Virus record (IMG/VR): IMGVR_UViG_3300049070_000075
Coordinates: 1-40,599 of that record
Length of the DNA stretch: 40,599 bases
Strand: one strand, 5' to 3'
From: a virus
Taxonomy: Duplodnaviria > Caudoviricetes
Part shown: positions 318 through 40,371 of the stretch, piece by piece
Layout: every line of letters starts with the position of its first letter
Position numbering within the stretch: the stretch's first letter is position 1
Made by a program: the position numbers and the translations under genes
Notes under the pieces: model-generated
Databases searched by the model: none
What the model was told of the DNA's origin: nothing
Seen by the model: only the letters and a program-made list of their open reading frames with translations

Positions 318-339
318 TTTATCGTTAAAAAAGTTAGAA
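318..339 (+). repeat. dispersed 22-bp motif, copy 1 (TTTATCGTTAAAAAAGTTAGAA)
   Basis: One mismatch to consensus; identical to the copy at 40350. Confidence 0.9.
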
Positions 340-363
340 TTTCTATTACCCGGAAAGTTTTAT

Positions 364-1170
364 TTATACCGTATAGATTAGTTTGCTTTGAACAAACAAG
401 TTTTTTATAATTGATTCCCCCAAAGATTGACAACATAAAAAACACATAGAAACTCTAATATCACTAAATTGTGTACCATCTGCTTGAGCGCCAATAGCTA
501 AACCAGTAGCAGAATTATTCAACGTTGCAGGGATAGAGGTTGTATTATTTACTGAAATAAATCCACTAGATGAACCTTGATAGATCGTTATAGAAGTAGA
601 TGGAACAAAAACACCTACGATAAAATACCACACATCTGCATCAAAAGTTAAGCCTGTAGCTACTGTGGTATCTGTAGTTCCATTATTTGAAACTCCAAAA
701 ACAAACTGGTTCAAGGTATTTCGTCTCAAAGCATAGGCCCTAGCATTACCTGTCGTTGTTCCTTTTGAAAATAATCTAGTGGCTGTACTAGGGGTTGTAT
801 CTGATTGTACCCACATTCCAATGGTTAACCCTGTATTAGAAATATAAGCTTCATTTCCAATAATATCATGAGCGGCATTATCAGCTATGGAATGATACTG
901 AGTAGTTCCATTGTAAATGCAATAGGGAACACTGTTAGCAGAAGTATGAATAAATAACGAATTGGCATTATTTGTTAAACTATTTCCTAATGCCAAGTCA
1001 ACCGCTTGACCGGATGAACCTACAACACTCATGGGAGCGAAAAACCTTAATCCGGGTAACATCATATAAGAAGATATGATATTTCCCCAACGATTTACAA
1101 AATCATTTCTTCCAATAAAATAACCATTTAATGATTTAGCCAAAACATCTGGATTAAGTGTATTTGTCAT
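364..1170 (-). CDS. LamG/concanavalin A-like jelly-roll domain protein, probable tail tip or receptor-binding component
   Basis: LTIGMWV...WYFIVGVF...ITIY...LAIGA pattern typical of LamG_3 domains; lies at the end of the tail gene series. Confidence 0.75.
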   Translation of the reverse strand: MTNTLNPDVLAKSLNGYFIGRNDFVNRWGNIISSYMMLPGLRFFAPMSVVGSSGQAVDLALGNSLTNNANSLFIHTSANSVPYCIYNGTTQYHSIADNAAHDIIGNEAYISNTGLTIGMWVQSDTTPSTATRLFSKGTTTGNARAYALRRNTLNQFVFGVSNNGTTDTTVATGLTFDADVWYFIVGVFVPSTSITIYQGSSSGFISVNNTTSIPATLNNSATGLAIGAQADGTQFSDIRVSMCFLCCQSLGESIIKNLFVQSKLIYTV

Positions 1171-1209
1171 AATTTAAGGTTGAGTTATTATATTTATACA
1201 AATTGATAC

Positions 1210-1238
1210 TTGACAAATAAAAAAAAGTGTGTTAATAT
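1210..1238 (+). promoter_or_regulatory. sigma70-type promoter for 1281..1475
   Basis: TTGACA (1210-1215), 17-bp spacer, TAATAT (1233-1238) with an extended -10 TG; SD-like GAGGGAG before the ATG. Confidence 0.75.
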
Positions 1239-1280
1239 ATCTGTAGAATTAGATGATAAATTTTTCGAGGGAGTTATAAA

Positions 1281-1475
1281 ATGTTAAAAATAGGTGATAT
1301 TATCGAAGTTTCAAGTATTCTAAATGCTTTTACAAATGGTGAAAAACTTATTGGTAGAATTACTAAGATTAACAGTGATAGAATTACCTTACAGTTTCAA
1401 ATCGTAAATGATGGTTTTGAATATTTAGCTTTTACTGAAAATTGCACTAAGTTAGATAGAATCACCTTAAACTAA
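1281..1475 (+). CDS. small SH3/KOW-like hypothetical protein (moron-like)
   Basis: LKIGDIIEV...GRITKI beta-barrel-like pattern; has its own promoter, SD and terminator. Confidence 0.7.
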   Translation: MLKIGDIIEVSSILNAFTNGEKLIGRITKINSDRITLQFQIVNDGFEYLAFTENCTKLDRITLN

Positions 1476-1495
1476 TCCTCTTCTAAATTTATTTC

Positions 1496-1519
1496 AAACT
1501 CCCTCATTAGAGGGAGTTT
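1496..1519. terminator. probable bidirectional intrinsic terminator
   Basis: AAACTCCCTC-ATTA-GAGGGAGTTT hairpin between convergent genes. Confidence 0.75.
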
Positions 1520-1524
1520 CTATT

Positions 1525-8284: not shown

Positions 8285-8306
8285 TCCTAACTTTTTTATT
8301 GTTAAA
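8285..8306 (-). repeat. dispersed 22-bp motif, copy 2 (TTTAACAATAAAAAAGTTAGGA)
   Basis: Three mismatches; spans the TMP stop codon and the RBS region of the next gene. Confidence 0.7.
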
Positions 8307-11300
8307 TATTTTGCCTAACATATTTTCTAAACATCATACCATTTAACTGAGGATTACCTGATGAATTCCCCCCAAAGTTCATATTTCCAAAGTTGTAATT
8401 ATTGGAGTTATAAATAGTTGATGAGGAAGAAACTAACTTATTTCCTACTCTACCCATTGCACTTTGTAACATTCCTTTTGATTTCTCAATACCCAGAGCT
8501 AAACCTTGTCCAGCCTGTAAACCTTTTTTCATAAGAACTTTAGAGGGTGAGGCAATTTGTAAATCGCTATTTATTTGATCGACTAAAGCCATAGTGACAG
8601 CATTAGTAGCAGCTAGTAGATCTTCTACACTTGCATCTAATCCAAATTTCATGCCAGAGAAAATATCCCCGCCAAGTGATTGACCTAACTTTAATAAGTC
8701 CAATTGAACTTTTAACTTATCTAGTTTTTCCTGGGCTTCTTTTTGGCGTGTAATTAACTCTTCTTTTCTCTTTTGTTCTTCCAAAAGCCTATTATATTCC
8801 TCTTGTGCGCTTACTTTGTCCCAAAAAATATAAGACATTTGACCTTCAAAAGCGCCATGTAACATTTCATCAGCTAAAGTAATACTTTCTTTCCCGCTAT
8901 CTAAAAATTCTTTTAGAAATGCCATTCTTTCGGCATTATCGCCCTTAGCCAATTCATTAAACTCTTTTTTACTATCAATTATGGCTTGGTTGTTCTTTTC
9001 GATGGATAACCTATTTTTATCCATTTCTTCAGTTAATTCTCTAATTGCGATTTTCTTTTTATCAATTGCAATTAAATCTTGGTTTTCGTTTGTAGTAAGT
9101 TCTGAAAGTTCCCTGTTAAGAATGCTTAATTTTTCTTCCTGTTCTAACAAAGTATCAGTTAGTTTAATATTCCCATCATTTAGTTTTTTATTACTGTCAT
9201 GATATTTATCGGTAGCCTTTTTAGCCCCCTCCATATTCCCCATTTGCTTTTGTAACATGTCCGCAAGAGTAGAGCCGGCACTAGACCAAGAGCCAGCCAT
9301 TTGCATCATATTTCCGAGATTTTCTATTCTTATTTGTTTTTGAAATGCCAAGAAAGTATCACTAAAATGTGAAAATAAACCTTGTGCCTCAGCTATTCCT
9401 TGAAGCATTTGGGGAGGTACATTCCATGCTCTTGCTTGTTCTCCTAAAATACGTGGTAAATCAGCGCCAGATAATTCGCCTGATGCCAATCTCCCCATAT
9501 TTCCACTTATATTCAACTTCAAAATGTCTCTAACATCATTCCAGTTAGATAACATAGAGTTGGCAGCAAAACCCCCCATGTTGAGACTATCTATAAATCT
9601 ATCAGCAGAGGCAGCACTGCCTAACATGCCTTGTTGCATTCCTGCTATAGCGTTTGTTGCTTGTTGCGCCCCTCCTGCTATATCCATCAAAGCATAAGCC
9701 ATAGGAGGAGGAGAACCAGGGGTTAAAATGTCAGGTAAACTAAAACTAGCTACTGTGTCAGCCATTGAATTGAAATAGCCAATCATGTCTTTAATGGCTT
9801 GAATAACCATTTCAATTCCTTCATTGAGAATAGGAAAAACTACCTCGCCTAAATCTTTTAGAACAGGAGAAACATCACTTTTAACTGTAGCCCCCAAACT
9901 TGTAAAATAAGGCATGATATTATCACGCAAAGAATTACCAACCTGAACCAAAGCAGGTTGAAGTATATTTTTCCAAATACCCGCCATTGCTTCCAAAGCT
10001 TTACCTACAACCGCATTAAGTAGATTTCCCAATGAAGCCATAACATCAACTATCAGGGATATACCATCATTCATTGAAAGGAAAACAGGTACTACATCGG
10101 ATTGTATAAATGAGGATAAGGATTGAAATGCACCATAGGCAGTTTGGATATATTGTACCCATAAAGAAAACGCACTCGCAGCAACACCACTTAAAAAACC
10201 AATCCACTGTACCCATGCTGGTATAAGAGTAGATACAATAAAAGTGCCTATTGCTGATAATCCAACTAGGAACGAATCAAGTAAACCTTTACCACTTCCA
10301 AAAGTAGCAGTTAATTGACCAAAAGATTGCTGAATTGAAGTGATGGCAGGTTGTACTAATGTGGAAAGAGTTGTAAATTGTTCTGTCAAATAAGCAACAA
10401 CAGAACCTACTATACCCTGGATATTCCCCCAATTACCCATCCAGGCAGCACCTAATAAACCCGCTGCTGCAATAATTAAATTGATTGGAGTAAGAAGAGA
10501 CATTACACCAGCGACTAAAGCAACAAATACTCCTCCTGCTAAAACTGCCCCTACTCCTAATAAAATTCCTTTGAATTCTTCAAAATGCCGATTGACAAAT
10601 TCAATACTTGTATTGATCGTATCTAAGAAACTAAATTCACCCAATCCCGAAAAAGAAGAAGTTATAGTACTACCTAAATCTGTAAATAAAGTAGTCATTT
10701 TGCTGATTAGTTCTAGTGTTTGTGGGGTTAAACCTAATGCCGCAACTAATCCACCTGTTCCCTCGGATTGGAAAATTGAAAATAATAACTTTCCCTTATT
10801 GATAAAATTATCAATTCCTGTTGCAATCAAACCAAAAGCATCAACAACCTTTGAACTATTCTCTGATGCAAATTTTGAAAAAGCTTCAGTAACACTTCTG
10901 ATAATAGGTAGAAACTTATCGCCTAATTGAATTTGGATTGCTTCAATAATTCCTTTGAATATTTCCCAAGCACCTTTGAGACTGTCAACTCTTGTTGCGG
11001 CACTTTCAGCGGCTAAACCGTTTTTGTTAACTTCTCCTGACAAAGTTCTAAATTCATCCTCTGTCATTTCAGCTAAACCTAATACAGTTCTCATTGCATC
11101 AGTACCACCTAAAATAGTGGCAAGTTTAGCTTTTTCTTCTTCTGTTAGTTTCTTAGTTGTTGTGATAGTTTCAGTTTGAGCATTATTAACTAAATCAATT
11201 GCACCTTGATACTCACCTAACTTTTCTTTATTATCAGTTATATTGTTAGTTAACTTTTGAATGGCTAGTGCCTGGTTTTTCATTCCCATTTCACTAGCAT

Positions 11301-12522: not shown

Positions 12523-12843
12523 TTACCTTTTTCTACCCGCTTTTACTTTATCTTCTTTGGCTTTCTTCTTAGCTTTTCTTTCCGCTTCTTCTTCTTCAAA
12601 TGCTGCCATTTTGTTTTTATGGTTCCACCATGATAGGAGTTCCCCCCTATCTTCTTTAGGTAGCTTCCTGAATTCCATAGGCCATTTCTGGAATTCTTTC
12701 GCTATCTCTATCTCCAAAAACCTCTGACTGTAAGTCCAATGCCCCTCGCTCGGCTTCGTCAAAAGCTGAAATAATAAAGTTGAGTTGTTGTTTTCTGGCT
12801 CTATCCATGTTACCTCGAAAAAATGCCCTGAATTTCTCAGCAT
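12523..12843 (-). CDS. tail assembly chaperone C-terminal frame (gpT-like), probably reached by frameshift
   Basis: Overlaps the chaperone gene in its +1 frame and abuts TMP; W.P.EF..LP-like motif. Confidence 0.65.
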   Translation of the reverse strand: MLRNSGHFFEVTWIEPENNNSTLLFQLLTKPSEGHWTYSQRFLEIEIAKEFQKWPMEFRKLPKEDRGELLSWWNHKNKMAAFEEEEAERKAKKKAKEDKVKAGRKR

Positions 12844-13351: not shown

Positions 13352-13368
13352 TTTTGCCCCCTTATAAA

Positions 13369-13422: not shown

Positions 13423-13451
13423 CACAGTATTAAACTCCCCCTATCAAACTA

Positions 13452-27292: not shown

Positions 27293-27316
27293 TACAATCT
27301 ACCTCCCATCAATATG

Positions 27317-27652: not shown

Positions 27653-27662
27653 CTATTCCCCC

Positions 27663-27684
27663 TTTAACGTTAAAAAAGTTAGAA
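27663..27684 (+). repeat. dispersed 22-bp motif, copy 5 (exact)
   Basis: Exact consensus; overlaps the stop codon of 27679..27885. Confidence 0.95.
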
Positions 27685-28073: not shown

Positions 28074-28230
28074 TTCTTATTGTCCATCTGTCTTAAACAT
28101 TTAGGGCAATATATCCTCTCTCCAATTCTTTCCCATCCTTTTTGTTTCATCTGCCAACTTTCAATAACTAATTCAATCGAGCTATCTACTTCTGTTAATT
28201 GTAATTATGACAAGTAATATAACTAGGCAT
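28070..28230 (-). pseudogene. frameshifted small zinc-ribbon-like gene
   Basis: MPSYITCHNYN* followed in another frame by QLTEVD...GWERIGERIYCPKC...KK*. The span is 161 nt, with a good SD and an ATGA overlap with the next gene. Confidence 0.6.
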
Positions 28231-28240
28231 TATTCCTCTC

Positions 28241-28504
28241 CTATATATAAATGTTCATTTCCTCATCAAGCCAAGTTAAGAACTGTTTTATATCTTCTAT
28301 CCCATAACCTTGTTCAATCATATCATCGGTTAAATATGTTCTGGCATATTTAGATAGAATTGTAGTTAATGATTTATCATCTAACCCATTAAGATAATCT
28401 TTAATCTGTTGTTTTAACCTATCATTCTTAATACCACTATCAACAGAACCTAAATCATACGCCATTAAACCATCTATATTTTCAAATAATTCTTGCTCAT
28501 CCAT
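28241..28504 (-). CDS. hypothetical protein
   Basis: 87-aa acidic ORF with SD. Confidence 0.7.
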   Translation of the reverse strand: MDEQELFENIDGLMAYDLGSVDSGIKNDRLKQQIKDYLNGLDDKSLTTILSKYARTYLTDDMIEQGYGIEDIKQFLTWLDEEMNIYI

Positions 28505-28581
28505 CCCCTATACCTCTTATATAATGTTTTTAGTTTTCTCTGTCTTTTATCGAACTTATAACAAGCTGTAAATTTATTCAT
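28474..28581 (-). CDS. possible 35-aa basic peptide (not in the ORF track)
   Basis: MNKFTACYKFDKRQRKLKTLYKRYRGWMSKNYLKI fills the gap and overlaps both neighbours. Confidence 0.35.
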   Translation of the reverse strand: MNKFTACYKFDKRQRKLKTLYKRYRGWMSKNYLKI

Positions 28582-28759
28582 GATTATAACTTTCAAAATA
28601 CAAACCCCTAAGAGTTTCAAATTTCTCATTGAGTGATATGAATTTATATTGGAAGGCTTCTATACTTAATTTTTCATCCTGAGATAAAATGAAATATTTT
28701 TCTAAATACTTTATCTCTTCTTTTATATCATATAAAACGGGTTTAATATCTTCTAACAT
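28574..28759 (-). CDS. hypothetical protein
   Basis: 61-aa ORF abutting the upstream stop codon. Confidence 0.6.
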   Translation of the reverse strand: MLEDIKPVLYDIKEEIKYLEKYFILSQDEKLSIEAFQYKFISLNEKFETLRGLYFESYNHE

Positions 28760-29452
28760 CTATCCCCATACCCCTGGATTAATTACTTTACCCTTTCTAA
28801 TTTTAACCGTGTTGCCATTTCTTCTTTTACAGCCTGGGCAAGCTTCAGATGAATTATGCCACGTTACATCATGACCATCTGTTACTTTCTTCCATTCAAG
28901 AAAACAAAGGCAACTGACCAAACAGATAGTTGAACCATCGCGTGGATAATGAGGAAGAGTTACAGTTTCCCATGCTTCGCTCATCCCTCTCATATAGGCT
29001 TGACCACTACTGGAACTATAGAGATTACTTCTATTAGCTATTCCTGCTATTTGTTCATCAGTGTATCTACCATTTTTAATATCACTGGCAAATGAACCGA
29101 GATACTTGTATTGATCTTGCAAAGTTCGGCCAATTATACTCCAGTCCCTTTGTGTCATGTTGTTTCTTCCACCCTTCCCGATAAGATATTGAAGAGTATA
29201 ATCTTTTCTTAAATTATCTCTCATTGTCTTTTCCCATTGTTGGAGAGTGATTTTCTTATCAACTAATTTTTGGGCTAATTCAAGATTACGTTCTTTAGCA
29301 CTATCAATAATAGATTGTCTAGCTTGTTCTATTTTTTCTTGAGATATGTATTTGCCCTTTGTATCTCTAAAACGTTTAGAGTTATTATCCCAAGAGAATG
29401 AACCACGCGCTTTAATATAATCTGTTAGTTGTTCTAGTAGTCTGGTTGTCAT
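28760..29452 (-). CDS. minor head / head morphogenesis protein (gp7/MuF-like)
   Basis: Between portal and protease; RFRD.KGKY, QY.YL..FA.DI..G, R.NLY and P.DGST.C...CLC.L motifs. Confidence 0.7.
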   Translation of the reverse strand: MTTRLLEQLTDYIKARGSFSWDNNSKRFRDTKGKYISQEKIEQARQSIIDSAKERNLELAQKLVDKKITLQQWEKTMRDNLRKDYTLQYLIGKGGRNNMTQRDWSIIGRTLQDQYKYLGSFASDIKNGRYTDEQIAGIANRSNLYSSSSGQAYMRGMSEAWETVTLPHYPRDGSTICLVSCLCFLEWKKVTDGHDVTWHNSSEACPGCKRRNGNTVKIRKGKVINPGVWG

Positions 29453-29649
29453 TCTGGCTCAAATTTAGCTTTTGAAAGATATAATTGAACTATAGGTACT
29501 CGATTATTTTTAAGTACAAAATATTTTCTAACTACTTCATAAATAAATTCTTCGTTGTATAAAATAGTGTCAGACACATTAGGAATAACATCTAATTCCC
29601 ATTCTGCTATTCTCTCACCACTGTTGTTATGAATAAGTAATACTTTCAT
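29449..29649 (-). CDS. hypothetical protein
   Basis: 66 aa, coupled; IPNVSD.I...YEV motif. Confidence 0.65.
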   Translation of the reverse strand: MKVLLIHNNSGERIAEWELDVIPNVSDTILYNEEFIYEVVRKYFVLKNNRVPIVQLYLSKAKFEPE

Positions 29650-29900
29650 TTCTTTAACTCATCCAAATAACTCTTAAATTTCCCCATATAATTCTCTAAA
29701 GGTCTAGCAAATAATGGAGCATCCCAATGCTTAGTATATTCATTCCATTCAGAACCACATAAAGCACATTCTATTCTATACTCAATAGCATAACTATCGG
29801 GAAGAGTAAGACTAAAAAATGATTTAGCCCAATCAGGAACAACAAGAGGATATATTATTTTTTCTGAATGAGAACAGGTTTTATAATCTGTGTAAATCAT
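29646..29900 (-). CDS. hypothetical protein (CxH...CxxC)
   Basis: 84 aa, coupled. Confidence 0.6.
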   Translation of the reverse strand: MIYTDYKTCSHSEKIIYPLVVPDWAKSFFSLTLPDSYAIEYRIECALCGSEWNEYTKHWDAPLFARPLENYMGKFKSYLDELKK

Positions 29901-30259
29901 GAGAAAGTTATCTCTTCAGTAGTTACTATACTAAATCCATATAGATGATTAGGTATTTCATCTGTAAGCAATGCACCAAAGAAAGTATAACTACCTACAT
30001 ACCCTTTACCTTTAGCAATTATATTTGAGTTGAGAGGATTTATTTCAAACTCAATTTCTTTTCTTGATTGACAAATATCTTTGATAAAAGTTTGTAACCC
30101 AGGCATATAATAATATTTTATGTCTATTTCCCAAGGTAAAGGTTCTTCTCTTTGAATTGCAAATACTTTGTAATCAGTACCTACTCTTTCATAGATCGGG
30201 TAAGCCATGCCCATATCTCTGGATGCATCCATTGGAAACAATAGGAAATAAACTGCCAT
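29897..30259 (-). CDS. hypothetical protein
   Basis: 120-aa ORF; start uncertain. Confidence 0.6.
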   Translation of the reverse strand: MAVYFLLFPMDASRDMGMAYPIYERVGTDYKVFAIQREEPLPWEIDIKYYYMPGLQTFIKDICQSRKEIEFEINPLNSNIIAKGKGYVGSYTFFGALLTDEIPNHLYGFSIVTTEEITFS

Positions 30260-30416
30260 CTATTTTCATCCATCCACTAGGATTAGATTTAGTAATAGGT
30301 AGTTCTGGCTGAGATACTAAGTAATCAATAGTCTTAGTAATCTCAACTGGTACTGCTGTATAAGCTACCAGAGTAGCTATTGATTTAAGAAATGATCGTC
30401 TACTTAATTCAATCAT
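30189..30416 (-). CDS. hypothetical protein with twin-arginine (Tat-like) N-terminus
   Basis: LSRRSFLK followed by a hydrophobic stretch. Confidence 0.6.
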   Translation of the reverse strand: MIELSRRSFLKSIATLVAYTAVPVEITKTIDYLVSQPELPITKSNPSGWMKIDGSLFPIVSNGCIQRYGHGLPDL

Positions 30417-30619
30417 CCTAAAAATACCCTAATCTTATATCTAGGAGTACCAACAGTTACTAACTCAGCCGCCACTTTATAAACCTCTCCCTTGAATACC
30501 CCATCTTTAGAAACAAGAGTTATTTCATCCCCTCTACTTGGAACATACCACATTTTCATAGTTTCAAAAATAGTTATATTCAATTTAGTAAAAACAAACT
30601 CTATGTTTAATTCTTCCAC
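30413..30619 (-). CDS. hypothetical protein
   Basis: GTG start with SD AAGGGGGA; VPSRGDEI motif. Confidence 0.65.
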   Translation of the reverse strand: MEELNIEFVFTKLNITIFETMKMWYVPSRGDEITLVSKDGVFKGEVYKVAAELVTVGTPRYKIRVFLG

Positions 30620-30855
30620 TATTCCCCCTTACCATTAACAGAAGCCTCTAACATTCCATCTTGAAAAATATTATTTATTTTAAGTATTCTTTCTTCAATC
30701 CAATGAAACCAAGTAATCAATTGCATTTCTAATTCAAAACCCTCTAAATTTTCATAAGCATAATCCAAATTAGAAATGCCTTGCTTTATACCTTCATACT
30801 CATACTTAATTTTCTTTTCCGTTTTTTCCGTTAACATTTGCTTCCAACATTCCAT
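30619..30855 (-). CDS. hypothetical protein ending in a copy of the portal C-terminal peptide
   Basis: Ends DGMLEASVNGKGE; the portal ends DGMLEANVNGKNGKEN. Confidence 0.55.
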   Translation of the reverse strand: MECWKQMLTEKTEKKIKYEYEGIKQGISNLDYAYENLEGFELEMQLITWFHWIEERILKINNIFQDGMLEASVNGKGE

Positions 30856-32317
30856 CTAACTGAGGATTTCTTTGATTGAATTCATTAACATAATCCTCTA
30901 TTTCTTTTTGTGCCAATTCTGCTATTTCTTCCTCCGATAATTGATTAAGAGGTTTACCTTTTGGTTTTAATACTGCCTTAATTGGCTCTCCCTTTTCATC
31001 TAATTCAATTTCTTTTTCCTCATCTAGCTTAACATCTTTATTGACATCTACTACTTTAGCATATTCAGATTGGTAAATAATCTTTACTGCTTCAGTAACA
31101 GAAACAAATGGAGCATTGCCTATTCTTTCATCAGGATGAGGTTCTAAACTTTCCTCTTCTCTGACTTCATTATAAGTTTTTGGTTTACGTCTTAATTCAG
31201 TTTCTTTAACAACATTATCAATATCATCTTTAGTGTCAGGTTTGAATACTACACGAAAGTTTTCACCATAATAAGGATTGACAACCTGAGCATTTAAGTC
31301 CTCAGATATTAGATCAAGTAAAGGTTTTAATGTTTCCCTTTGATAGACTTCATCAGCAACTTTAGCACTCGCCTCTGTTGCGTTTTTATCTCTTAAACCT
31401 TCTGGGATTCCCCATACCCGTTCGGCATAATATCTAGCACGTTCATGAACTGACTTTCCATCTTCCCCCCTGCGAGTTGTTAAATCCTGTACTGATACAT
31501 CCCCCCCTCTAAATATTCTGTAACGCGCATCCTCCATTTTAGCCTGTTTCCAATCTGAAAGAGCCTTAATAAAATCCCTATCGGATAAATCAGCACGTAA
31601 AGAAATTATTTTAGAAAGAGTTAAGCCATGTACATAATCATCTAAATCAAACTTCTCTGCCTGGGTAGCTAATTGAAGTATCATTAGATAAGTTGATAAG
31701 GGAGATAATCCTCTTATCGGATTAAATGGATTAGGTAATTTATGAAAACAGACTTGATTAACTTCTAATCGTTCCGGGTAGTGAGGATCATTAGGTGTAT
31801 AAGAGAAATAGGCTATAAGTCTAGGTTCCCCCCCATGATGAGTTTTCCAGGGGATAGGCTTAATCATATAGGCAGGGATTGGAATAAACATGTTTAATTC
31901 CTTAAAGCCATTGGGTACAATCATCCAATAAGCTTCCCCTCTCAATAAAAGCCAAGTCATCTGATACTTCCATGCGAATGTTGCGCCCATTTGTGGCATA
32001 GGTGATTTATTCAACATTAAATCAAATGGATGATTGATTACTTTTTCCCAAGTGTCAGTAGCAAAATCTTTTGATTGTTCTATGCTTAATATAGCCCTAG
32101 CTACACCATTAGCTATAAAGTCAATATTGGGCTTTACTAAAGGGCTAGTAACCCCTAGCCTCTCAAAAGCTTCCTCATCGTAATTAGACCAGGGGTTTTG
32201 ATCTTCACCCGGATAACTAAAACCTGATATAAGACTACCAGGGGAATAAAGTTCTGTTTTTATAAATGGTTGAATAGCTTTTGCTAGTGATTGAAGTACT
32301 CTAGTTCTAATCGACAT
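30806..32317 (-). CDS. portal protein (HK97 family)
   Basis: HP...L..P, LLLRGEAYW, H.K.PNP.NP.RGLSPL, GIP.GL, L..ISE.LN and T.NEVR...LEP motifs. Confidence 0.9.
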   Translation of the reverse strand: MSIRTRVLQSLAKAIQPFIKTELYSPGSLISGFSYPGEDQNPWSNYDEEAFERLGVTSPLVKPNIDFIANGVARAILSIEQSKDFATDTWEKVINHPFDLMLNKSPMPQMGATFAWKYQMTWLLLRGEAYWMIVPNGFKELNMFIPIPAYMIKPIPWKTHHGGEPRLIAYFSYTPNDPHYPERLEVNQVCFHKLPNPFNPIRGLSPLSTYLMILQLATQAEKFDLDDYVHGLTLSKIISLRADLSDRDFIKALSDWKQAKMEDARYRIFRGGDVSVQDLTTRRGEDGKSVHERARYYAERVWGIPEGLRDKNATEASAKVADEVYQRETLKPLLDLISEDLNAQVVNPYYGENFRVVFKPDTKDDIDNVVKETELRRKPKTYNEVREEESLEPHPDERIGNAPFVSVTEAVKIIYQSEYAKVVDVNKDVKLDEEKEIELDEKGEPIKAVLKPKGKPLNQLSEEEIAELAQKEIEDYVNEFNQRNPQLDGMLEANVNGKNGKEN

Positions 32318-32327
32318 TGTATATTTT

Positions 32328-32349
32328 TTCTAACCTTTTTATCGTTAAA
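32328..32349 (-). repeat. dispersed 22-bp motif, copy 6 (TTTAACGATAAAAAGGTTAGAA)
   Basis: Two mismatches; 10 nt upstream of the portal ATG. Confidence 0.85.
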
Positions 32350-32364
32350 AATTTAATCCCCCAA

Positions 32365-32748
32365 TTATTTCTTATTCCAAGGCTTAAAGCCTTTTAGAGT
32401 TTCAATAGTAGGCCATTGACCAGTAAATGTTATAGCCCTATCGTCAATAGTAATTGTGGCGGGTGGTTTATAAACCGGGAATTTTACTTCCATTAAAAGA
32501 AAACTTCTACCTGTTTCTCTATGCCACTTCATATAATAATCATGAAACCATCTAACCATTGCATCTATTCCCCCTGGCTGATGACTTCTACTCGAATGAA
32601 TATGAACTTCAAAATATTTCATTGCTTCAGATAGAAATTCAAATAATCCTGGCACAGGCTCATCATTACATACATTAGCGCCTTGCCAACCTGATGAATA
32701 ATCCGAACATACGCCGTCAAAGTCCAAACATAAAATAGGCTTACCCAT
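32365..32748 (-). CDS. HAD-superfamily phosphatase-like protein
   Basis: Motif I LDFDGV, motif II HSSR, motifs III/IV KPPA..TIDDRA. Confidence 0.85.
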   Translation of the reverse strand: MGKPILCLDFDGVCSDYSSGWQGANVCNDEPVPGLFEFLSEAMKYFEVHIHSSRSHQPGGIDAMVRWFHDYYMKWHRETGRSFLLMEVKFPVYKPPATITIDDRAITFTGQWPTIETLKGFKPWNKK

Positions 32749-32769
32749 AGTTCTCCCCTTTGTACAATT

Positions 32770-32985
32770 TTATTTAGGAGCATCCAAAGGCCATAATAAA
32801 TATTCACCTGCTACATGATGAGTTAATATGTCTATCGTTGATAACGATTTAGGAAATACTTTATAATGCCAACCTTGCAGGCTTATAGGACAATCACCTA
32901 TTGCATCTACAGCTATATAAACATGGGTTAACTCATCTTCAAATACAAAACGTAATTCTTTAATAATAGTTTGACAGTTAGCCAT
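32770..32985 (-). CDS. hypothetical protein
   Basis: 71 aa, coupled to the upstream ORF. Confidence 0.6.
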   Translation of the reverse strand: MANCQTIIKELRFVFEDELTHVYIAVDAIGDCPISLQGWHYKVFPKSLSTIDILTHHVAGEYLLWPLDAPK

Positions 32986-33119
32986 TAGATAACCAACGAG
33001 AAAGTTAACAAAGCAAATCCTAGATTCATCCAGCTAAATCCTCTTTTATTCCAAGGCCAAAACTCAAGAAGAAAAGCTATTGTTGCCAAAATATATAAAG
33101 CGTAATCTCCGATATACAT
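32985..33119 (-). CDS. 44-aa two-helix membrane peptide (not in the ORF track)
   Basis: MYIGDYALYILATIAFLLEFWPWNKRGFSWMNLGFALLTFSLVI; TAATG overlaps at both ends; SD GGAGAGG. Confidence 0.7.
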   Translation of the reverse strand: MYIGDYALYILATIAFLLEFWPWNKRGFSWMNLGFALLTFSLVI

Positions 33120-33514
33120 TATATCCTCTCCTGATAAAATTTAAGCAATTCAATAGTTTTTGAAAACAGTTCTTCTACTTCACTATATGGTACAGCTTTA
33201 TGAACCTTTTCAGGAATACCCATTTTATCTTCAATTTGATAGGATTCCATTTGTTTATCTTCTAAAGTCCAACTAGGGAAACTATAACTAACTTTCTGTT
33301 CTAATCTTTTATCGGCTTCCTCCAATTCATTGAACTTTATAGCAGCTATATATAAGTCTCTAAATGGGCTATCATATATTGTGTTACCAAGTATACCAGC
33401 AATAGCTAAATTACCGATTAAATTTTTTAAGTTCACTTCTTCTCTTTGATCTTCCATTCCGATAGTTTTCTCAATAATTCCTGATGCATTTCTTCCTCTG
33501 TTTTTTCTTTCCAA
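33119..33514 (-). CDS. hypothetical protein
   Basis: 131-aa ORF; the real start may be further downstream. Confidence 0.6.
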   Translation of the reverse strand: MERKNRGRNASGIIEKTIGMEDQREEVNLKNLIGNLAIAGILGNTIYDSPFRDLYIAAIKFNELEEADKRLEQKVSYSFPSWTLEDKQMESYQIEDKMGIPEKVHKAVPYSEVEELFSKTIELLKFYQERI

Positions 33515-33987
33515 ATTCTCCCTATTGTCTTTTGAAGTATTGGTATATTACGCCATGATGGTTGTTTTTCAGGGGGTCGATATTCTGCTAATCCTTTAAT
33601 AGACAACCAATAAAGGAAATGCATATATTTCCAATACAACGCTATACGAAACCTTAACCAGTAATGAATTACCTCTCCCTTAAAACTATATCGAGTGGCA
33701 TAGATAATGTTTCTTACATAATCACATTGAACAAATCTAACCTTGTAAGGCCCGATGTTATGAATACTATATAATGTATCTTCTATGTTTTGGTCATATA
33801 ATGTCATGCCTTCAAAATCATAACCAAACAAATTATTGACTGCTTCTAATGAGATAGCTATTACTTCTCCACCTGTCCATTCATAATCTAAAACATAATC
33901 ACTGTAAGGCAGGGAGTAATCAAAGTTCTTATTTACTTCAATATAACGTCTAGTTATTTTAATAATTCCTGTTGCTCTAATATCCAT
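33433..33987 (-). CDS. hypothetical protein
   Basis: 184-aa aromatic-rich ORF; G9 run in the SD position. Confidence 0.65.
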   Translation of the reverse strand: MDIRATGIIKITRRYIEVNKNFDYSLPYSDYVLDYEWTGGEVIAISLEAVNNLFGYDFEGMTLYDQNIEDTLYSIHNIGPYKVRFVQCDYVRNIIYATRYSFKGEVIHYWLRFRIALYWKYMHFLYWLSIKGLAEYRPPEKQPSWRNIPILQKTIGRIWKEKTEEEMHQELLRKLSEWKIKEKK

Positions 33988-34000
33988 TTATCCCCCCCCC

Positions 34001-34216
34001 TTAATATAAATCAGGTATAGGTAAATAATGAGTGACTAGATGAGCTATTTTATTAGTATCTATCCATATCCATCTACGATCATACGGATAATATTTAGCC
34101 TTATCGTATATAGCTAATCCCATTCCATCTACTCTAGTTTGAATAAGAGCTAATGTATTTTCAGGTATAATATTATTAGAGGCTACTTTAACCCATCTAG
34201 TTGTTTTTTCTTCCAC
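34001..34216 (-). CDS. DUF551-like small protein
   Basis: W.KV....PE...VTHYLP.P pattern. Confidence 0.6.
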   Translation of the reverse strand: MEEKTTRWVKVASNNIIPENTLALIQTRVDGMGLAIYDKAKYYPYDRRWIWIDTNKIAHLVTHYLPIPDLY

Positions 34217-34506
34217 TACTCCCCCTTAAATCTTAACTGTACTTCCTTAAATTCAATCCGGTATTTATTCTCTGCTTCTTTGTACTTCATAAAATTCTCT
34301 GATGATAAATAAGACAATCCTCTGAGAAGAGTCAAGTTCTTTTTCCACTGTTCTAATCTGTCTGAGGTATAATATAATCCTGTTGCAGTATGACATTTAG
34401 GACATTGCTGAGTAATTTTTCTATAGTCATCTTTTACATATCGAATGACTATATGCTTCATTGTTAGATCATATTGATAATGGCAGAATGGGCAATCAAT
34501 CTTCAT
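34216..34506 (-). CDS. zinc-ribbon hypothetical protein
   Basis: CPFC...CPKC. Confidence 0.65.
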   Translation of the reverse strand: MKIDCPFCHYQYDLTMKHIVIRYVKDDYRKITQQCPKCHTATGLYYTSDRLEQWKKNLTLLRGLSYLSSENFMKYKEAENKYRIEFKEVQLRFKGE

Positions 34507-34762
34507 ATAGTTTAACCAAATCTTTAGAGTGTTGTTGAAACCATAATAATTGTTTAATCAATAAATATTCTGCCTTAGTAGCTAATCTATAAGTCCATTC
34601 TCTTTCATCATTTATAAAATCTTCATTATGGTTAACAAGTTCAAATATGCAATATTCTCCCTCATTATCCCTGTGAACAGCTATAGTATCGGACAAGTTC
34701 ATAACAAATTCAGTAAAAGCTACATCTATAAATTTGAGCCATTTTAACCATTCTTTATTCAT
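34496..34762 (-). CDS. hypothetical protein
   Basis: 88 aa, abutting the terL stop codon. Confidence 0.6.
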   Translation of the reverse strand: MNKEWLKWLKFIDVAFTEFVMNLSDTIAVHRDNEGEYCIFELVNHNEDFINDEREWTYRLATKAEYLLIKQLLWFQQHSKDLVKLYED

Positions 34763-36310
34763 TTACTCCCATCCCATAAGCCACTTTGAACCATCCAACA
34801 TTGTCAATAAAACACATTCTCCCAAATCAGGACTTCTCCCTATACGTTCTTTGATCTTCTTCTTTTCTTCAATCAGTATTTGCCCACTAGATGTTAATGA
34901 ATAAGTAGCAGCACATAAATCTGCTAATAATTCATTGTCAGGTGGTAAACATAAGTTATCGCCATGCTCAGGGTCTAAGGCCTCTCTCATTCTCCAATAC
35001 ATCTCACTTCTTTTGTTTTTCATTCCATGACGATTTGATCTATCTCGGAAAGTAGAAGCTTCTGCAACATTTATAGCTGAAACAAAATCATAAGTTTCTT
35101 TTAACATATCATAAGGCGATGAACCTACCCCGATAGCGTCAACGTTTATTGTTTCTGGAAAATCTTCTTTGTCTAATTCTGGCTTAACTACTGTTATTAG
35201 GGATTGACCATCAGGAGTTTTACTACCAGGCCATTTTAATAGTTCATCAAAATAATTTTCTCTTCTCTTAGCCAGGGTAGTTTTATCTCTTCCTCCTCTG
35301 GCAACGTCAATACCTATTGCATTTATTGGTATATTAGGTTTTTCTGTTTCTCTCCAACGTTGTTGAGCTTTTAATACCCACGCTGAAGGAATGACTTGTA
35401 ATGGATTAGGATCAGCTTTAGCAGCAAAATTCCCAAATAAAAACATACTCCTATATGGCTCTTCATAACGTTGTAATTGAGAAACATAATCAGTATTTAA
35501 TAAATATGGGTTATCGAATACAGTACCAGGAATAAAAGTTCTACTTCTTGGATTTAATGTTTCTCCATTATACTCTATTGGCTCATCATTTTCACATTCA
35601 ACTTCCTCACCATCTATAGATGTATACCATCTTAATTCTCCTGGTTTAGCTGGACTAGGGTGTTGATAAGCATCAGGGAACAAATAAGCTAACCAAGGCT
35701 TAAAATAATCTATTACCCATTGCCCTTGATCTTCTGTAGGGGGGTTAAAGGTTAATACTACCCTACATCTTTGATTAGGGTCAGTGGTTCTATTCCATAT
35801 TGTTATATATTCAATAATTTCTTTTGTAAAAAATTGAGCCTCATCAAATCCAAAAAAATCTCTTGCCCTACCTTGTTGTTTTCTTTTATCTTTTTCTAAT
35901 TGGCAACTTTCAAACTCAACCATTCGTTTACCACCATCTAAACTCCAACGGTGTAAACTTTCATTAAAACTATCTTTAGTATGGTCTATTTCCTCAGCGT
36001 TAAATATCTTCCTGCTATCTTCAATAATTCCTCTTAACTCTGGAAATGTCCTTCTAAAGATAGCAGAACGTTTATGCTTAGTTGCTGCCAATCCTAAAAG
36101 TAATGAAGTTTTTCCACTTCCTGCTCCTCCCCCAAATCCTAAAACATCAGCTTCACTTTCATAAGCTAATCGTTGAGGATTAGGAATTCCATCTCTGTCA
36201 GGATTAGGTTCCCAAAGTGGTTTTTCTTTTGGAATTAAACCTAGTCTTTTTCTTCTTTCAATCTCAGCCCTGGCTTGAATCTGATAGGACGATAGAGACA
36301 TCTTCACCAT
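34763..36310 (-). CDS. terL: terminase large subunit
   Basis: Walker A GGGAGSGKT, Walker B FGFDEA, coupling motif TFNPP, nuclease motifs GIDVARGGRD, VDAIGVG and GRSPD. Confidence 0.95.
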   Translation of the reverse strand: MVKMSLSSYQIQARAEIERRKRLGLIPKEKPLWEPNPDRDGIPNPQRLAYESEADVLGFGGGAGSGKTSLLLGLAATKHKRSAIFRRTFPELRGIIEDSRKIFNAEEIDHTKDSFNESLHRWSLDGGKRMVEFESCQLEKDKRKQQGRARDFFGFDEAQFFTKEIIEYITIWNRTTDPNQRCRVVLTFNPPTEDQGQWVIDYFKPWLAYLFPDAYQHPSPAKPGELRWYTSIDGEEVECENDEPIEYNGETLNPRSRTFIPGTVFDNPYLLNTDYVSQLQRYEEPYRSMFLFGNFAAKADPNPLQVIPSAWVLKAQQRWRETEKPNIPINAIGIDVARGGRDKTTLAKRRENYFDELLKWPGSKTPDGQSLITVVKPELDKEDFPETINVDAIGVGSSPYDMLKETYDFVSAINVAEASTFRDRSNRHGMKNKRSEMYWRMREALDPEHGDNLCLPPDNELLADLCAATYSLTSSGQILIEEKKKIKERIGRSPDLGECVLLTMLDGSKWLMGWE

Positions 36311-36794
36311 TTTGAATTCGTTGTACTTGTTCTAGTGATAACTTTTCCCAAGGGATGTTGATATTGAGAGATGTTTCTTTATAAAGACCTTTGATCTTAG
36401 CTAAACTGTCTAATGCCGATTGAGGACTATGCAATTCTATTTCAGTAGTGATTATTTCAGCATCACTATCTTTATTTTCTTTCCGAGATGTTGTTTTTAT
36501 CTTTTTAACCAATCTGGATTTAGGATGATCTGCTAAATCAGAAATAGAATATACATTTGAAAAATCACCTAAATCACCATTTGCAATTTGAGAAAAAGCT
36601 AAAGATATTTCATCTTTAGTTAACTGAAGTCTTTTCTTTTCATCTTCAACTGCCTGTCTAATTTCAGGTATTTTCATTAGTCGTGTAGCTTGTTGATTAG
36701 GAAAAGAATAGCCTGCAAGTCTAGCCGCTTTTGTTGCATCCCAACATATAAGTAAATAATATTTGAATATTTCCTGTTTAGTAGTTAAAGCCAT
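36264..36794 (-). CDS. terS: terminase small subunit (probable start at MALTTKQ rather than the TTG at 36833)
   Basis: LT.KQ..F...YL...DATKAARLAGYS helix-turn-helix and IELHS...ALD.LAK..G motif; upstream of terL. Confidence 0.9.
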   Translation of the reverse strand: MALTTKQEIFKYYLLICWDATKAARLAGYSFPNQQATRLMKIPEIRQAVEDEKKRLQLTKDEISLAFSQIANGDLGDFSNVYSISDLADHPKSRLVKKIKTTSRKENKDSDAEIITTEIELHSPQSALDSLAKIKGLYKETSLNINIPWEKLSLEQVQRIQNGEDVSIVLSDSSQG

Positions 36795-36908
36795 AACAAA
36801 TATCCACAAATAAATACAAACAAAAATCAACAAGTCTTGTATTTCTTCTTAATCATCTTAGTATAATTCTTAGCTCTAAGATAAGACTTTATTATGTAAA
36901 GTATATCT

Positions 36909-37589: not shown

Positions 37590-37978
37590 TCTTCCACCTT
37601 ATATTCATTTACTTCAAAACACCAGGGGCATACCCATTGAATTTTATCTGTTGGAGCATCGCCTATTGAAAACCATTTAGAACAGTCAGGGCAGTTAAAA
37701 TGAGCTAATTTCTCAATTGATATTTTACCCATTTTACTTTTGGGATATTTCCCCCTAAGAGCCTTTATCTTTTGTTCTCTATCGAATAAATTAACCATAT
37801 CAATCCTCATAGGTTTACCGGGATAGTCGAAATCAATTATATTTTCTTTATAAATATCTGTCACAATCATGGAATGTTTATAACATCTTCCACTTTGACA
37901 ATCTCTACACCATATAGCAGGGTTAGTTATTTCATACATTTTTCTAACTTTTTTAACGTTAAAAATTACTATACGCAA
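37586..37978 (-). CDS. Cys-rich zinc-binding hypothetical protein (probable start MYEIT at 37939)
   Basis: CRDC....C..H and CPDC...CPWC. Confidence 0.65.
   Translation of the reverse strand: MRIVIFNVKKVRKMYEITNPAIWCRDCQSGRCYKHSMIVTDIYKENIIDFDYPGKPMRIDMVNLFDREQKIKALRGKYPKSKMGKISIEKLAHFNCPDCSKWFSIGDAPTDKIQWVCPWCFEVNEYKVEE
37942..37963 (-). repeat. dispersed 22-bp motif, copy 7 (exact)
   Basis: Exact consensus on the minus strand; overlaps the stop codon of the yhhQ-like gene. Confidence 0.95.
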
Positions 37979-38537
37979 TAGTTATTTGATCTTTTCGATG
38001 TCTGAATAACCAAATAATAGGTAATACTAATAAAGTCATTTCTAATTTACCAATAATTTGACCTGTTAAAAATTCCATTGGTATCCCTGCCAAATAAAGA
38101 AAAACAATAGAATCGACTACCAATCCAACAAGATTAGAGGCTAGAACGGCTAGGGTTAAGTTTCTTTCTTGCAAGGGAGTATATACAAACAGGTCTAAGA
38201 GTTCGCTTAGTAAAAATGCTGTTCCTGATGCTATACCTAAATAAGGATCTATAAAAGCTGAAATCAATGCCCCTATTCCAATTCCTATCAAAGTCCAATT
38301 TACTCCGAGATACCTTTGTACTAAATCTCTAAGAGTAAATCCTAACCCTATAGCCAATACCCCACTGGGCGCATAAATACTAGGCCATACTGGAATAACA
38401 CAAACAGGGTCACAAAATAAACCTACATTTTTAATGAGCCAATTTGCCAGAAAGATTGTACCTATAAATCCGATCAAATAAATATATTTCATAATTCCCC
38501 CTAGAATAACTCTGATTTCAATTGCTGATTTAACCAT
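37959..38537 (-). CDS. yhhQ: VUT/YhhQ-family queuosine-precursor (preQ0/preQ1) transporter (probable start MKYIY)
   Basis: Multi-pass membrane protein with ANW, P.GV...G..FTLRD.VQ, IAS..AFL.SEL.D..VY, SN.VG..VDS.VF and GQ..GK motifs. Confidence 0.8.
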   Translation of the reverse strand: MVKSAIEIRVILGGIMKYIYLIGFIGTIFLANWLIKNVGLFCDPVCVIPVWPSIYAPSGVLAIGLGFTLRDLVQRYLGVNWTLIGIGIGALISAFIDPYLGIASGTAFLLSELLDLFVYTPLQERNLTLAVLASNLVGLVVDSIVFLYLAGIPMEFLTGQIIGKLEMTLLVLPIIWLFRHRKDQITIAYSNF

Positions 38538-38905
38538 TTTAATTGTTGTAACAATCCCCCTTTACCTTTAAGAGGAGTTTCTATTTCCTTCCATATTTTA
38601 CTACAAATTTTCACATATTCGCTTCCCCCTAACACTATAACTTTCTCATTCAAAAGATTTAATTCTTCTGCTTGTTGGCGAATAAAATCAATCTTTACAG
38701 AATTTTTATCGTCCATTTTAACATTATATGGTTCAATAATTTCACTTAGGTCTAACAATCCATATTTAGCTGAGAGAATATAAACCCTAGCGGTTAAAGT
38801 TAAAGCGTAATTCAGACACAATTTGTGATATGAGCCTTGATACATATATCGGGCTTTAACCGGATAAGGTGATTTCTTTTCCCCACATGCTACAATCGCA
38901 ATCAA
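38501..38905 (-). CDS. DUF6884-like protein
   Basis: IVACG.KK...A..MY.G.Y, YILSAKYGLL, IEPY.V.M, LGG..Y and PL.G..G...QL.WL motifs. Confidence 0.7.
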   Translation of the reverse strand: MIAIVACGEKKSPYPVKARYMYQGSYHKLCLNYALTLTARVYILSAKYGLLDLSEIIEPYNVKMDDKNSVKIDFIRQQAEELNLLNEKVIVLGGSEYVKICSKIWKEIETPLKGKGGLLQQLKWLNQQLKSELF

Positions 38906-39732
38906 AACATACTCTCCATTTTAGCTAGTGGCTGATAAGTGTAAATCTTATAAAGTTCGAGTAAGTTCTTAGCGTTATAACGAGCTACTATTTTTTCATA
39001 GCTTTTAGTAGGGCCTTCTCCCTCAATCCAACCTTCTCCTATTTCATCTTTCAGATAAGGCCAATAAGTCTTGAAATCAGTTTTATTATTCAAATGTACC
39101 CAAGTAATTTTATCTTCTTGTCGATAAATAGCCCTGCCAAATTTAGAAGCTGTATAAATCCAAGCTGTGCTATCCATTGAATAAAAATCATAATTCAATC
39201 CAGTTTGTGGACTAGTCGCTCCAAAACAATGAAGTCTACAATTCGGATTTATTTCATCTTTTAATCTAAAACAAACTTCTAAAGCTTTATCGCTTCTTGT
39301 TGCTTTAGAAGCTAATCCACCTATACCTATATAGTTTTCTTCTCTCAACATTTCCTCTAACACTTCCCAAGGTTCACCTACATGAAAACTAGTTATAGAG
39401 TTAATTCCTGCTTGCCTCATCTTAAGATGATTTTCTCTAGTGGCTTCATGATCTCCAATAACATCTAGTGAGGCGATCAATTCAAAACAATCAGGGTACT
39501 TTAAGAGAAATTCAATATACTCATCAACATTTATTTCTGCAGCTATAGTCATAGCTGAATATGCGCCGCTATCCATAAAGATTGGTATATTTCTTTCTTT
39601 GCAAAATTTAATCAAATCGTCAGGAGTTTTCTTATTCTTTTTATACCACCAATAAGAGACAAGAATTGATACATTATCTAGCCCATCAAGATAATGATAT
39701 TTCTGTTCGCATCCTGCTAGGTACAATTTCAT
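38902..39732 (-). CDS. dpdA: tRNA-guanine transglycosylase-fold protein, DpdA-like DNA base-exchange enzyme
   Basis: FMDSGAYS, LDVIGD, FH.GE, IGIGG, LHCFG and SMDSTAW motifs of the TGT barrel; adjacent to a YhhQ-like transporter. Confidence 0.7.
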   Translation of the reverse strand: MKLYLAGCEQKYHYLDGLDNVSILVSYWWYKKNKKTPDDLIKFCKERNIPIFMDSGAYSAMTIAAEINVDEYIEFLLKYPDCFELIASLDVIGDHEATRENHLKMRQAGINSITSFHVGEPWEVLEEMLREENYIGIGGLASKATRSDKALEVCFRLKDEINPNCRLHCFGATSPQTGLNYDFYSMDSTAWIYTASKFGRAIYRQEDKITWVHLNNKTDFKTYWPYLKDEIGEGWIEGEGPTKSYEKIVARYNAKNLLELYKIYTYQPLAKMESMF

Positions 39733-40001
39733 TCTTTCTTTAACTCTTCCTCTAATTTATTTTTCAACTCTTCTGTATAAGTTTCAATACTACTAGGATT
39801 TTTATTTGGTATTTGCCACACTAAATAAGCAGTAGGAGCGATAACACAAACAATATAAATTATTACCAACGCACTTTGCGGTAATTGTAAACTTTCTCTT
39901 AGCGTTGGTACTACTGTCTCAGCAATTCCTATTCCAATTCCTACACCTGGAATAGTAGAAAACATTTTAGCCATGTTCTTAAAATGATCTAGTCGGTTCA
40001 T
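39729..40001 (-). CDS. small membrane protein
   Basis: One or two hydrophobic segments and a charged C-terminus. Confidence 0.6.
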   Translation of the reverse strand: MNRLDHFKNMAKMFSTIPGVGIGIGIAETVVPTLRESLQLPQSALVIIYIVCVIAPTAYLVWQIPNKNPSSIETYTEELKNKLEEELKKE

Positions 40002-40021
40002 GTTCTAGTCCTTAAACAGAA

Positions 40022-40075
40022 AATAAAGTATCAATATTGATACTTTATTATAACACACTTCTTTATATAAAACAA
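40022..40075 (-). promoter_or_regulatory. sigma70-type promoter with an overlapping 28-bp perfect palindrome
   Basis: TTGTTT (40075-40070), 17 bp, TG-n-TATAAT (40052-40047); palindrome AATAAAGTATCAATATTGATACTTTATT at 40022-40049. Confidence 0.65.
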
Positions 40076-40079
40076 TCAC

Positions 40080-40331
40080 TTATTCTGTTCTAAAATGAAT
40101 TTCTTCAAGTCTCTTTTCATCTATAGGATAACATGCCCCATCATTACCTAAACCCTCTTCAAACAATTGACCATCCGGCAACTTATAAACTGACCTATAA
40201 CTTATTCCAGTTTTTCCAAGTCTTTGCCAACCTTCAACTTGCATAATCAAATGCGCACTTATAGGGGTTCGAGGATGCCATCTATTTTCTTTCCAATCCT
40301 CATATGACTTGAATTTTAACCATTCGTTCAT
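40080..40331 (-). CDS. hypothetical protein
   Basis: 83 aa with SD GGAGAG. Confidence 0.65.
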   Translation of the reverse strand: MNEWLKFKSYEDWKENRWHPRTPISAHLIMQVEGWQRLGKTGISYRSVYKLPDGQLFEEGLGNDGACYPIDEKRLEEIHFRTE

Positions 40332-40349
40332 TTCATTCTCTCCATTATT

Positions 40350-40371
40350 TTTATCGTTAAAAAAGTTAGAA
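40350..40371 (+). repeat. dispersed 22-bp motif, copy 8 (TTTATCGTTAAAAAAGTTAGAA)
   Basis: Intergenic; identical to copy 1. Confidence 0.9.

Follow-up and report, generated by a model that had tools for sequence, protein, structure and literature searches.

A dispersed 22-base-pair word with a one-sided arm: candidate protein-binding sites in the virion half of a tailed phage

What reads a 22-base-pair (bp) word that recurs in both orientations throughout the virion genes of a tailed phage? This question is raised by a stretch of 40,599 nucleotides, IMG/VR record IMGVR_UViG_3300049070_000075 (G000), in which a first-pass annotation had noted eight such copies. We analyzed the whole stretch, hereafter called the window. 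A phage protein of some kind very probably binds these putative sites. A phage-encoded reader is likely because the word is long, seemingly private to this phage, apparently selected at the level of DNA, and paralleled in relatives by analogous words that differ from genome to genome. We tentatively propose, at a little under even confidence and by analogy with known systems, that this reader is a clamp of the ParB/KorB type, because of the spacing of the sites, their indifference to orientation and to promoters, and a dyad that resembles parS and OB.

Sequence and reality of the word

Re-scanning the window recovered eight copies (Table 1), with coordinates, strands and mismatch counts exactly as first reported and gaps that recompute to 7967, 6917, 6018, 6443, 4665, 5614 and 2408 bp. 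A chance origin is excluded. In 100 dinucleotide shuffles of the window the mean number of matches was 0.01 and the maximum 1, versus 8 in the real sequence, and the order-4 Markov expectation for a single exact copy is 3e-7. This copy-number comparison had been proposed in the first-pass annotation, and it reveals no tail of weaker copies: the window holds no match with 4 or 5 mismatches, the next-best has 6, and position weight matrix scores of 28.8 to 35.4 for the true sites compare with 10.2 for the best further match. An unbiased motif finder likewise returned eight dispersed sites in the window and none in a shuffled window.

Across the copies, 14 of the 22 columns vary little or not at all, differences are confined to positions 5, 7, 8, 15 and 21, and conservation ends abruptly at both flanks. 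The word consists of a 12-bp dyad (TTTAAC-GTTAAA), then two invariant A residues, then an 8-bp arm ending in GTTAGAA, of which positions 16 through 20 are invariant and which has no conserved mirror on the left side. The dyad is disrupted by uncompensated changes at positions 5, 7 and 8. The palindromic core described in the first-pass annotation is therefore present as a dyad, but the site as a whole is not symmetric: as evident by the uncompensated breaks, the invariant one-sided arm and the lack of a conserved left arm, it is a dyad plus an asymmetric arm. Site 7, taken with its flank, forms a perfect 16-bp palindrome, TTTTTAACGTTAAAAA. All eight sites with their flanks fold no better than shuffled sequences (z from +0.65 to -1.6), no Rfam match and no tRNA were found in the window, and no duplications flank the sites.

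The comparison with sequencing runs covered sites 4 through 8 (20600-40599) and used assembled contigs only. Logan contigs of run X1 span all five of these sites with 0 differences, and a piece from run X2 covers site 6, likewise without any (30 letters on one side). No rearranged joints are listed in the contigs of four runs over this interval, where contigs drop rare variants, and contig ends fall away from the five sites, with the proviso that contigs cannot show nicks. Contigs matching the word alone carry three different upstream flanks that are absent from the window, and therefore at least three further copies exist outside it. Two of these outside copies lie 1.65 kb apart on a 9,281-nucleotide X1 contig (depth 28.9; window contigs, 9-46), which we infer belongs to the same phage.

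Database scans suggest that the word is private to this phage. A degenerate form of the 22-mer was found at one viral and six metagenome loci, each time as a single copy in unrelated DNA, and shortening it to a 19-mer (22 loci) or a 16-mer (51 loci) revealed no dispersed copies, the nearest approach being two 14-mer look-alikes in 3 of the 51. Among 26 capsid relatives there were two weak matches, both in one genome, and in 401 Chloroflexota genomes, allowing up to two mismatches, there were 7 matches in 6 genomes versus 5 for the reversed control. A check in close relatives, also suggested by the first-pass annotation, could be run on one relative with 67% capsid identity, which lacks the word but is too distant to refute the proposal. 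Our search of mainly open-access literature turned up neither a report of such sites in Chloroflexota phages nor one of an orphan phage ParB with dispersed sites.

Placement of the sites and selection on their DNA

The gaps average 5.7 kb with a coefficient of variation (CV) of 0.29, which is more even than random placement (P~0.002) and bears out the spacing regularity that had been put forward for checking. Spacing is denser towards the non-structural end, reaching 2.4 kb in the window and 1.65 kb on the outside contig. Orientations are balanced at 4:4, in the order + - - + + - - +. Seven sites lie in the minus-strand gene run, four pointing with transcription and three against it, and site 1 lies between convergent genes. 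Because the orientation test failed, the window sites are not a stoperator set, and the contrast with stoperators drawn in the first-pass annotation holds.

Six of the eight copies are mostly non-coding, as against 3.4% of all window 22-mers, and these are found at short gene junctions into which they fit tightly, with stop codons inside sites 2 and 5 and with sites 2, 6 and 7 ending just short of an ATG (Table 1). The sites avoid the long intergenic gaps of the window. None overlaps the best predicted promoters (26975-, 1216-/1210+, 37864-, 32838+), in a scan that is weak in that promoter-like sites were no commoner than in shuffles and in that the host's own promoters may differ from those scanned.

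The two intragenic copies, sites 3 and 4, translate as LTLKKLE and LSNFFNVK, as had been stated. Homologues of the open reading frame (ORF) that carries site 3 occur in 18 of 73 tail loci, and all align from residue 29 on (conserved part, residues 29-96), which places the site outside the conserved part; there it uses ACG, which accounts for 4% of Thr codons. The orthologue of the site 4 gene in relative L008 lacks the word, and the site 4 stretch uses two AAC codons (21%) and a CTT codon (16%). Both copies lie in real genes, within unconserved and tolerant linkers. Because the intragenic copies use rare codons in unconserved linkers, these data support selection acting on the DNA of the word, as the first-pass annotation had proposed for a dispersed protein-binding system; the even spacing, the outside copies and the analogous words in relatives also support that proposal.

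Dispersed words in relatives and candidate readers

Whole records of capsid and tail relatives were used for motif and profile comparison. The motif finder showed that 9 of 29 relatives hold at least five dispersed copies of some word, whereas shuffles hold at most two. Two capsid relatives each encode a ParB with a helix-turn-helix (HTH) and carry, respectively, seven copies of a parS-like palindrome (G009) and five of an NBS-like palindrome (G005). The word of G005 recurs in G006 (four copies in 19 kb), and its ParB has Q in the HTH. The tail relative G034 encodes ParB and, on a separate palindrome scan, holds five copies of a 16-bp palindrome that bears little likeness to these, one of them just upstream of parB; therefore, such a word can drift far.

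The ParB family of G009 yielded 146 matches, some named from Anaerolineae. In 80 viral loci of this family, which include near-duplicates and the record that gave the pattern, the parS/NBS-like pattern occurs 171 times versus 27 in shuffles (6-fold), and it is present at least twice in 51 of the 80 versus 4 of 80 after shuffling. Of 35 whole records chosen from these loci, 29 carry the pattern (reversed control, 0). The presence of parS/NBS-like sites across many HTH-ParB phages of Chloroflexota type is better supported than our reading of the window word. Many of these phages (L220-L299; G467-G501; G005, G006, G009, G034) combine an HTH-ParB of 500-660 amino acids with genome-wide 16-bp palindromes, and several of the loci hold a palindrome copy inside parB.

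Other relatives have dispersed words and no detected HTH-ParB: G046, G004 (17 copies), G040 (14), G031 (5), G016 (8) and G010 (7). The tail relative G046 (L373-L375), in which no ParB was found, carries 26 copies of the asymmetric word AACGCTAACAGGGG in 41 kb, on both strands and with 19 intragenic. One copy lies within a 144-amino-acid triple-HTH gene (L374:8191-8622), whose product is a candidate reader and has no other relative in viral contigs. In the 105-kb G004 (L159-L164), where again no ParB was found, an imperfect dyad around CAAATTTG occurs 17 times, mostly between genes; this genome also holds a long glycosyltransferase/NeuB sugar-pathway cluster, RtcB, a sigma factor and a TnpB-like gene. 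The complete 66-kb G040 (L420-L421, 4145-27326) has 14 intergenic, one-directional copies of a GATTAGA direct repeat with a period of 11, of which 13, as written, are opposite to the nearest gene, an arrangement that is promoter- or activator-like. In G031 (L405-L407), five TTGGCA-N4-TGCCAA palindromes, four of them intragenic, lie about 10 kb apart, and the genome encodes a short ParB-N/zinc-ribbon protein and an Ocr-like DNA mimic.

Several words counted among the nine were rejected as analogues, namely the top word of G008, which looks like a ribosome-site or start context, those of G016 and G040, which are one-stranded, intergenic and promoter-like, and that of G019, which is a hairpin. 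The A/T-rich palindromes of G052 are within Markov expectation (5 versus 1-6), and its weak ParB match was not used. Short ParB-N-only proteins of G031, G032, G048 and G013, which have no evident HTH, were not counted as readers.

How, then, might a clamp use the sites of the window? KorB loads at OB with cytidine triphosphate (CTP), slides, and is halted by a partner at promoters (PMC11790492), and on plasmid RK2 twelve OB sites are spread through ~60 kb, at distances of a few bp to more than 1 kb from promoters (PMC13768133). The 16-bp dyad of site 7 matches the parS consensus TGTTTCAC-GTGAAACA at 12 of 16 positions (PMC7383237) and resembles the OB oligonucleotide ATTTTAGCGGCTAAAAG (PMC11790492). 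The palindromes that accompany ParB in G009, G005, G034 and the 80 loci support the same reading. Even spacing, too, is found mostly where palindromes accompany an HTH-ParB: gap CV ranges from 0.24 to 0.54 in nine ParB records (four of nine at P<0.05; window, 0.29) and from 0.61 to 1.34 in eight relatives with other words (none at P<0.05). By analogy, a partner-less clamp gene of the ParB/KorB type would reside in the unassembled half of the phage genome. Its product would recognize the TTTAAC/GTTAAA dyad as a dimer, recognition of the one-sided GTTAGAA arm would fall to a second domain or a partner protein, and spreading of the clamp would extend over a few kb around every site. The C-terminal domain of P1 ParB reads a second box (PMC5016525), which offers one possible way to explain the arm. 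The even spacing could then let the clamp cover the whole genome, damping transcription of virion genes or keeping the DNA organized as KorB would. A more specific version, which we regard as speculative and rather unlikely in all its particulars, holds that the sites are bipartite loading sites tiling the genome for a ParA-less, ParB-type CTP clamp, in which the dyad is joined to a fixed box, bound by a second domain or by a partner that locks the clamp, so that each site has a direction, and in which spacing near the sliding range lets a few loadings coat, silence or organize the virion operon.

Several observations weigh against a clamp. Profile searches of the window (62 ORFs with PHROGs, 58 with Pfam), a record that is about 49% complete by CheckV, found no repressor, HTH regulator, integrase, recombinase, ParB, ParA or replication gene. 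The cognate DNA-binding protein or recombinase that the first-pass annotation suggested seeking on the contig was thus not found there, and the link to ParB is by analogy only. The word does not fit the parS/NBS-like pattern of the relatives, lacking the C of the TTTC common to parS and NBS; AT-rich words match parS or OB easily; and an invariant one-sided arm together with uncompensated dyad breaks is not expected for a symmetric ParB site. The nine evenly spaced ParB records are those with positions listed, drawn from 35 of the 80 loci that were picked after the pattern count had been seen. The eight relatives with less even words include G009 and G005, which have ParB yet clumped sites (CV 0.94 and 1.32). 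Furthermore, G029 and contig G023:C27 have HTH-ParB and show no dispersed palindrome on the palindrome scan. ParB is rare in structural kin: profile A2 detected it in 2 of 40 tail relatives and in none of the 20 that are complete, PF02195 in 4 of 40 and phrog_1033 in 5 of 38. Conversely, capsids of the window's family are present at only 2 of the 80 ParB loci.

The asymmetry of the conserved word would fit sites that serve as operators for a phage repressor with an asymmetric recognition sequence, one that resembles C1 of phage P1 or acts as a multi-HTH monomer, with separate domains contacting three TAAC/GTTA-type elements and with lytic genes silenced by operator or roadblock action. We consider this explanation, the main alternative, possible but on balance doubtful. 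P1 provides a precedent with its 22 dispersed, asymmetric 17-bp C1 operators (PMC8546580), and G046 pairs its 26-copy asymmetric word with a triple-HTH gene where no ParB was found, even though that protein is isolated among viral sequences and its link to the word only a candidate one. The words of G004, G040 and G010 and the rarity of ParB in structural kin point the same way, as do the six sites at junctions and the denser spacing towards the non-structural end. However, the words of relatives without ParB are clumped rather than even, the window sites avoid the long intergenic gaps as well as the top predicted promoters, and stoperators follow the direction of transcription (PMC9283540), whereas the sites here are divided 4:4. 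Moreover, PHROGs and Pfam profiles found no HTH regulator in the window.

Very even spacing along packaged DNA would also suit marks for the virion or for DNA transfer, such as site-specific nicks or packaging or ejection pause sites, for which T5-like phages are the model. This is improbable given that the sites face both ways, tighten at the right end and are absent as a word from relatives, and that contig ends, within the limits noted above, lie off the five sites. That no reader is encoded in the window would accord with a host nucleoid organizer or transcription factor, a quite improbable alternative: the Chloroflexota genomes are at control level (the host is only inferred and may be an unsampled one), no multi-copy carrier appeared in the viral or metagenome scans, and each relative uses a different word. 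Recombination sites for inversion, excision or cassette uptake are suggested by the outer dyad TYTAAC-N9-GTTARA with its asymmetric middle and by four identical copies in both orientations. We judge them very improbable, since the virion genes keep one strand and an ordinary order, an event would disrupt two genes or remove the one for the capsid, and neither flanking duplications nor a recombinase was found in the window. The sites are not attC-like because they form no hairpin, and their 9-bp spacer is longer than the 6-8 bp typical of tyrosine recombinases. Of the roles proposed in the first-pass annotation, silencing or DNA organization by a bound protein fits best, whereas recombination between converging pairs is unsupported by rearranged joints, contig ends or gene order. 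An artefact of assembly, or chance, is a negligible explanation; the word is private to this genome and X1 is possibly the source sample, but the copies reappear without differences in X1 and, at site 6, in X2, and they vary, preserve reading frames and use rare codons.

Gene context and comparison with known systems

The window, which is the whole record, represents the virion half of the genome of a tailed phage, and almost all of its genes lie on the minus strand. Gene order is ordinary and on one strand: terminase, portal, protease/2H, HK97 capsid, adaptor and tape measure (Table 1). The host is likely a member of the Chloroflexota, because, among 71 genome loci, the capsid is best matched by contigs from genomes of Caldilineaceae, Chloroflexota and Thermoflexales, and because a quick capsid tree places the window with L008 (support 100), inside a 28-row group (98) holding two of these contigs. 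A scan with the single capsid protein revealed no close kin, and cultured phages are only ~30% identical. Window DNA was found in five soil runs, one of which holds 99% of its words and is possibly the source; runs X3-X5 carry small shares and were left out of the habitat reading. No RNA dataset is listed among the five.

Table 1. Copies of the word and genes of the window
Feature	Position	Strand	Remarks
Site 1	318..339	+	1 mismatch; between convergent ORFs 100-315(+) and 364-1170(-)
Site 2	8285..8306	-	3 mismatches; contains tape-measure stop codon; ends 4 bases before ATG; AGGA immediately 5' of that ATG may be a ribosome site
Site 3	15202..15223	-	exact; codes residues 18-24 of ORF 14983-15273
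Site 4	21220..21241	+	exact; antisense in acidic C-terminal linker of ORF 21148-21450
Site 5	27663..27684	+	exact; overlaps stop of ORF 27679-27885; upstream of ORF 27317-27652
Site 6	32328..32349	-	2 mismatches; 10 bases upstream of portal ATG
Site 7	37942..37963	-	exact; ends 2 bases before ATG
Site 8	40350..40371	+	1 mismatch; between ORFs 40375-40575 and 40080-40331
Possible ninth copy	40588..40599	+	may be cut by contig end; T-rich flank followed by the word's initial 6 bases (ATTATT-TTTAAC); X1 contig stops at 40580
Look-alike	26734..26755	+	6 mismatches; in long intergenic gap beside terminator-like hairpin; probably chance
Small conserved gene carrying site 3	14983..15273	-	upstream of BNR-repeat gene
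Small gene carrying site 4	21148..21450	-	upstream of head-tail adaptor
Virion module	8302..36833	-	PHROGs/Pfam profile matches
terS	36264-36833	-	
terL	34763-36310	-	
Portal	30806-32317	-	
Protease/2H fusion	25183-26685	-	
Major capsid (HK97)	23687-25180	-	
BNR-repeat putative tail tube	13452-14963	-	tail-tube label suggested by position
Tape measure	8302-12522	-	

Other features of the window are recorded here in their own right. Upstream of the terminase, on the minus strand at 37959-39732, TGT-like, DUF6884 and preQ0/queuosine-precursor transporter-like genes are likely 7-deazaguanine DNA-modification genes. The gene in the protease position (25183-26685, minus strand) has a fused N-terminal 2H phosphoesterase with a weak match to Acb1-like anti-CBASS proteins (E 1e-4, below the cut-off). 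About 30 small ORFs without assigned function interrupt the head and packaging genes (26972-30855, 32365-34762 and 36909-40575), two of which (27317-27652 and 30189-30416) start with twin-arginine-like leaders. For ORF 33433-33987, the only small ORF searched in this way, the ESM Atlas gave no usable match. On the opposite strand, within 1-315 (+), the ORF cut by the contig start and ORF 100-315 end alike (RYDFEEV and RYDFDEV) and are tandem paralogues.

Phage-wide repeats as such are known from Cluster O mycobacteriophages, and what the window adds is a site with a one-sided arm, unusually even in its spacing and strictly conserved, from a group of phages that has received little study. If the reader is a ParB-type clamp, the word would show how far such sites diverge and would test the role of partner-less phage ParBs; if it is a multi-HTH repressor, the sites would be an orientation-independent counterpart of stoperators. 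The gain is modest without the reader in hand.

Among known systems, the asymmetric, dispersed C1 operators of P1 (PMC8546580) and the stoperators of Cluster A (PMC9283540) resemble the window sites in lying at short gene junctions. However, stoperators point with transcription, and in the window the sites do not, overlap none of the best predicted promoters and are accompanied by no detected repressor gene. ParB-parS and Noc-NBS (PMC7383237) are comparable through the 16-bp dyad of site 7, identical to the parS consensus at 12 of 16 positions, and related phages combine parS/NBS-like words with ParB genes; the phage word departs from parS at four symmetrically placed positions, among them the C of TTTC, and has a weakly conserved left outer arm and an extra arm. 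KorB-OB of the IncP-1 plasmid RK2 (PMC13768133, PMC11790492) is alike in having about one site per 5 kb across the replicon, many far from promoters, and a T-run/A-run dyad, but OB is symmetric and has a known reader encoded beside a partition gene, whereas the phage word joins a 12-bp dyad to an invariant 8-bp arm. The 17-bp repeat of Cluster O mycobacteriophages (PMC4351075) is likewise private, phage-wide, both inter- and intragenic, independent of the direction of transcription and mostly off promoters. These phages encode a ParB-like protein, and the function of the repeat is on record as unknown (PMC4351075). Their repeat is a perfect dyad in 34 unevenly spread copies, in contrast to the sparser, even dyad-plus-arm word of the window. 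By analogy, it seems that the window word would work most like KorB-OB or the Cluster O repeat.

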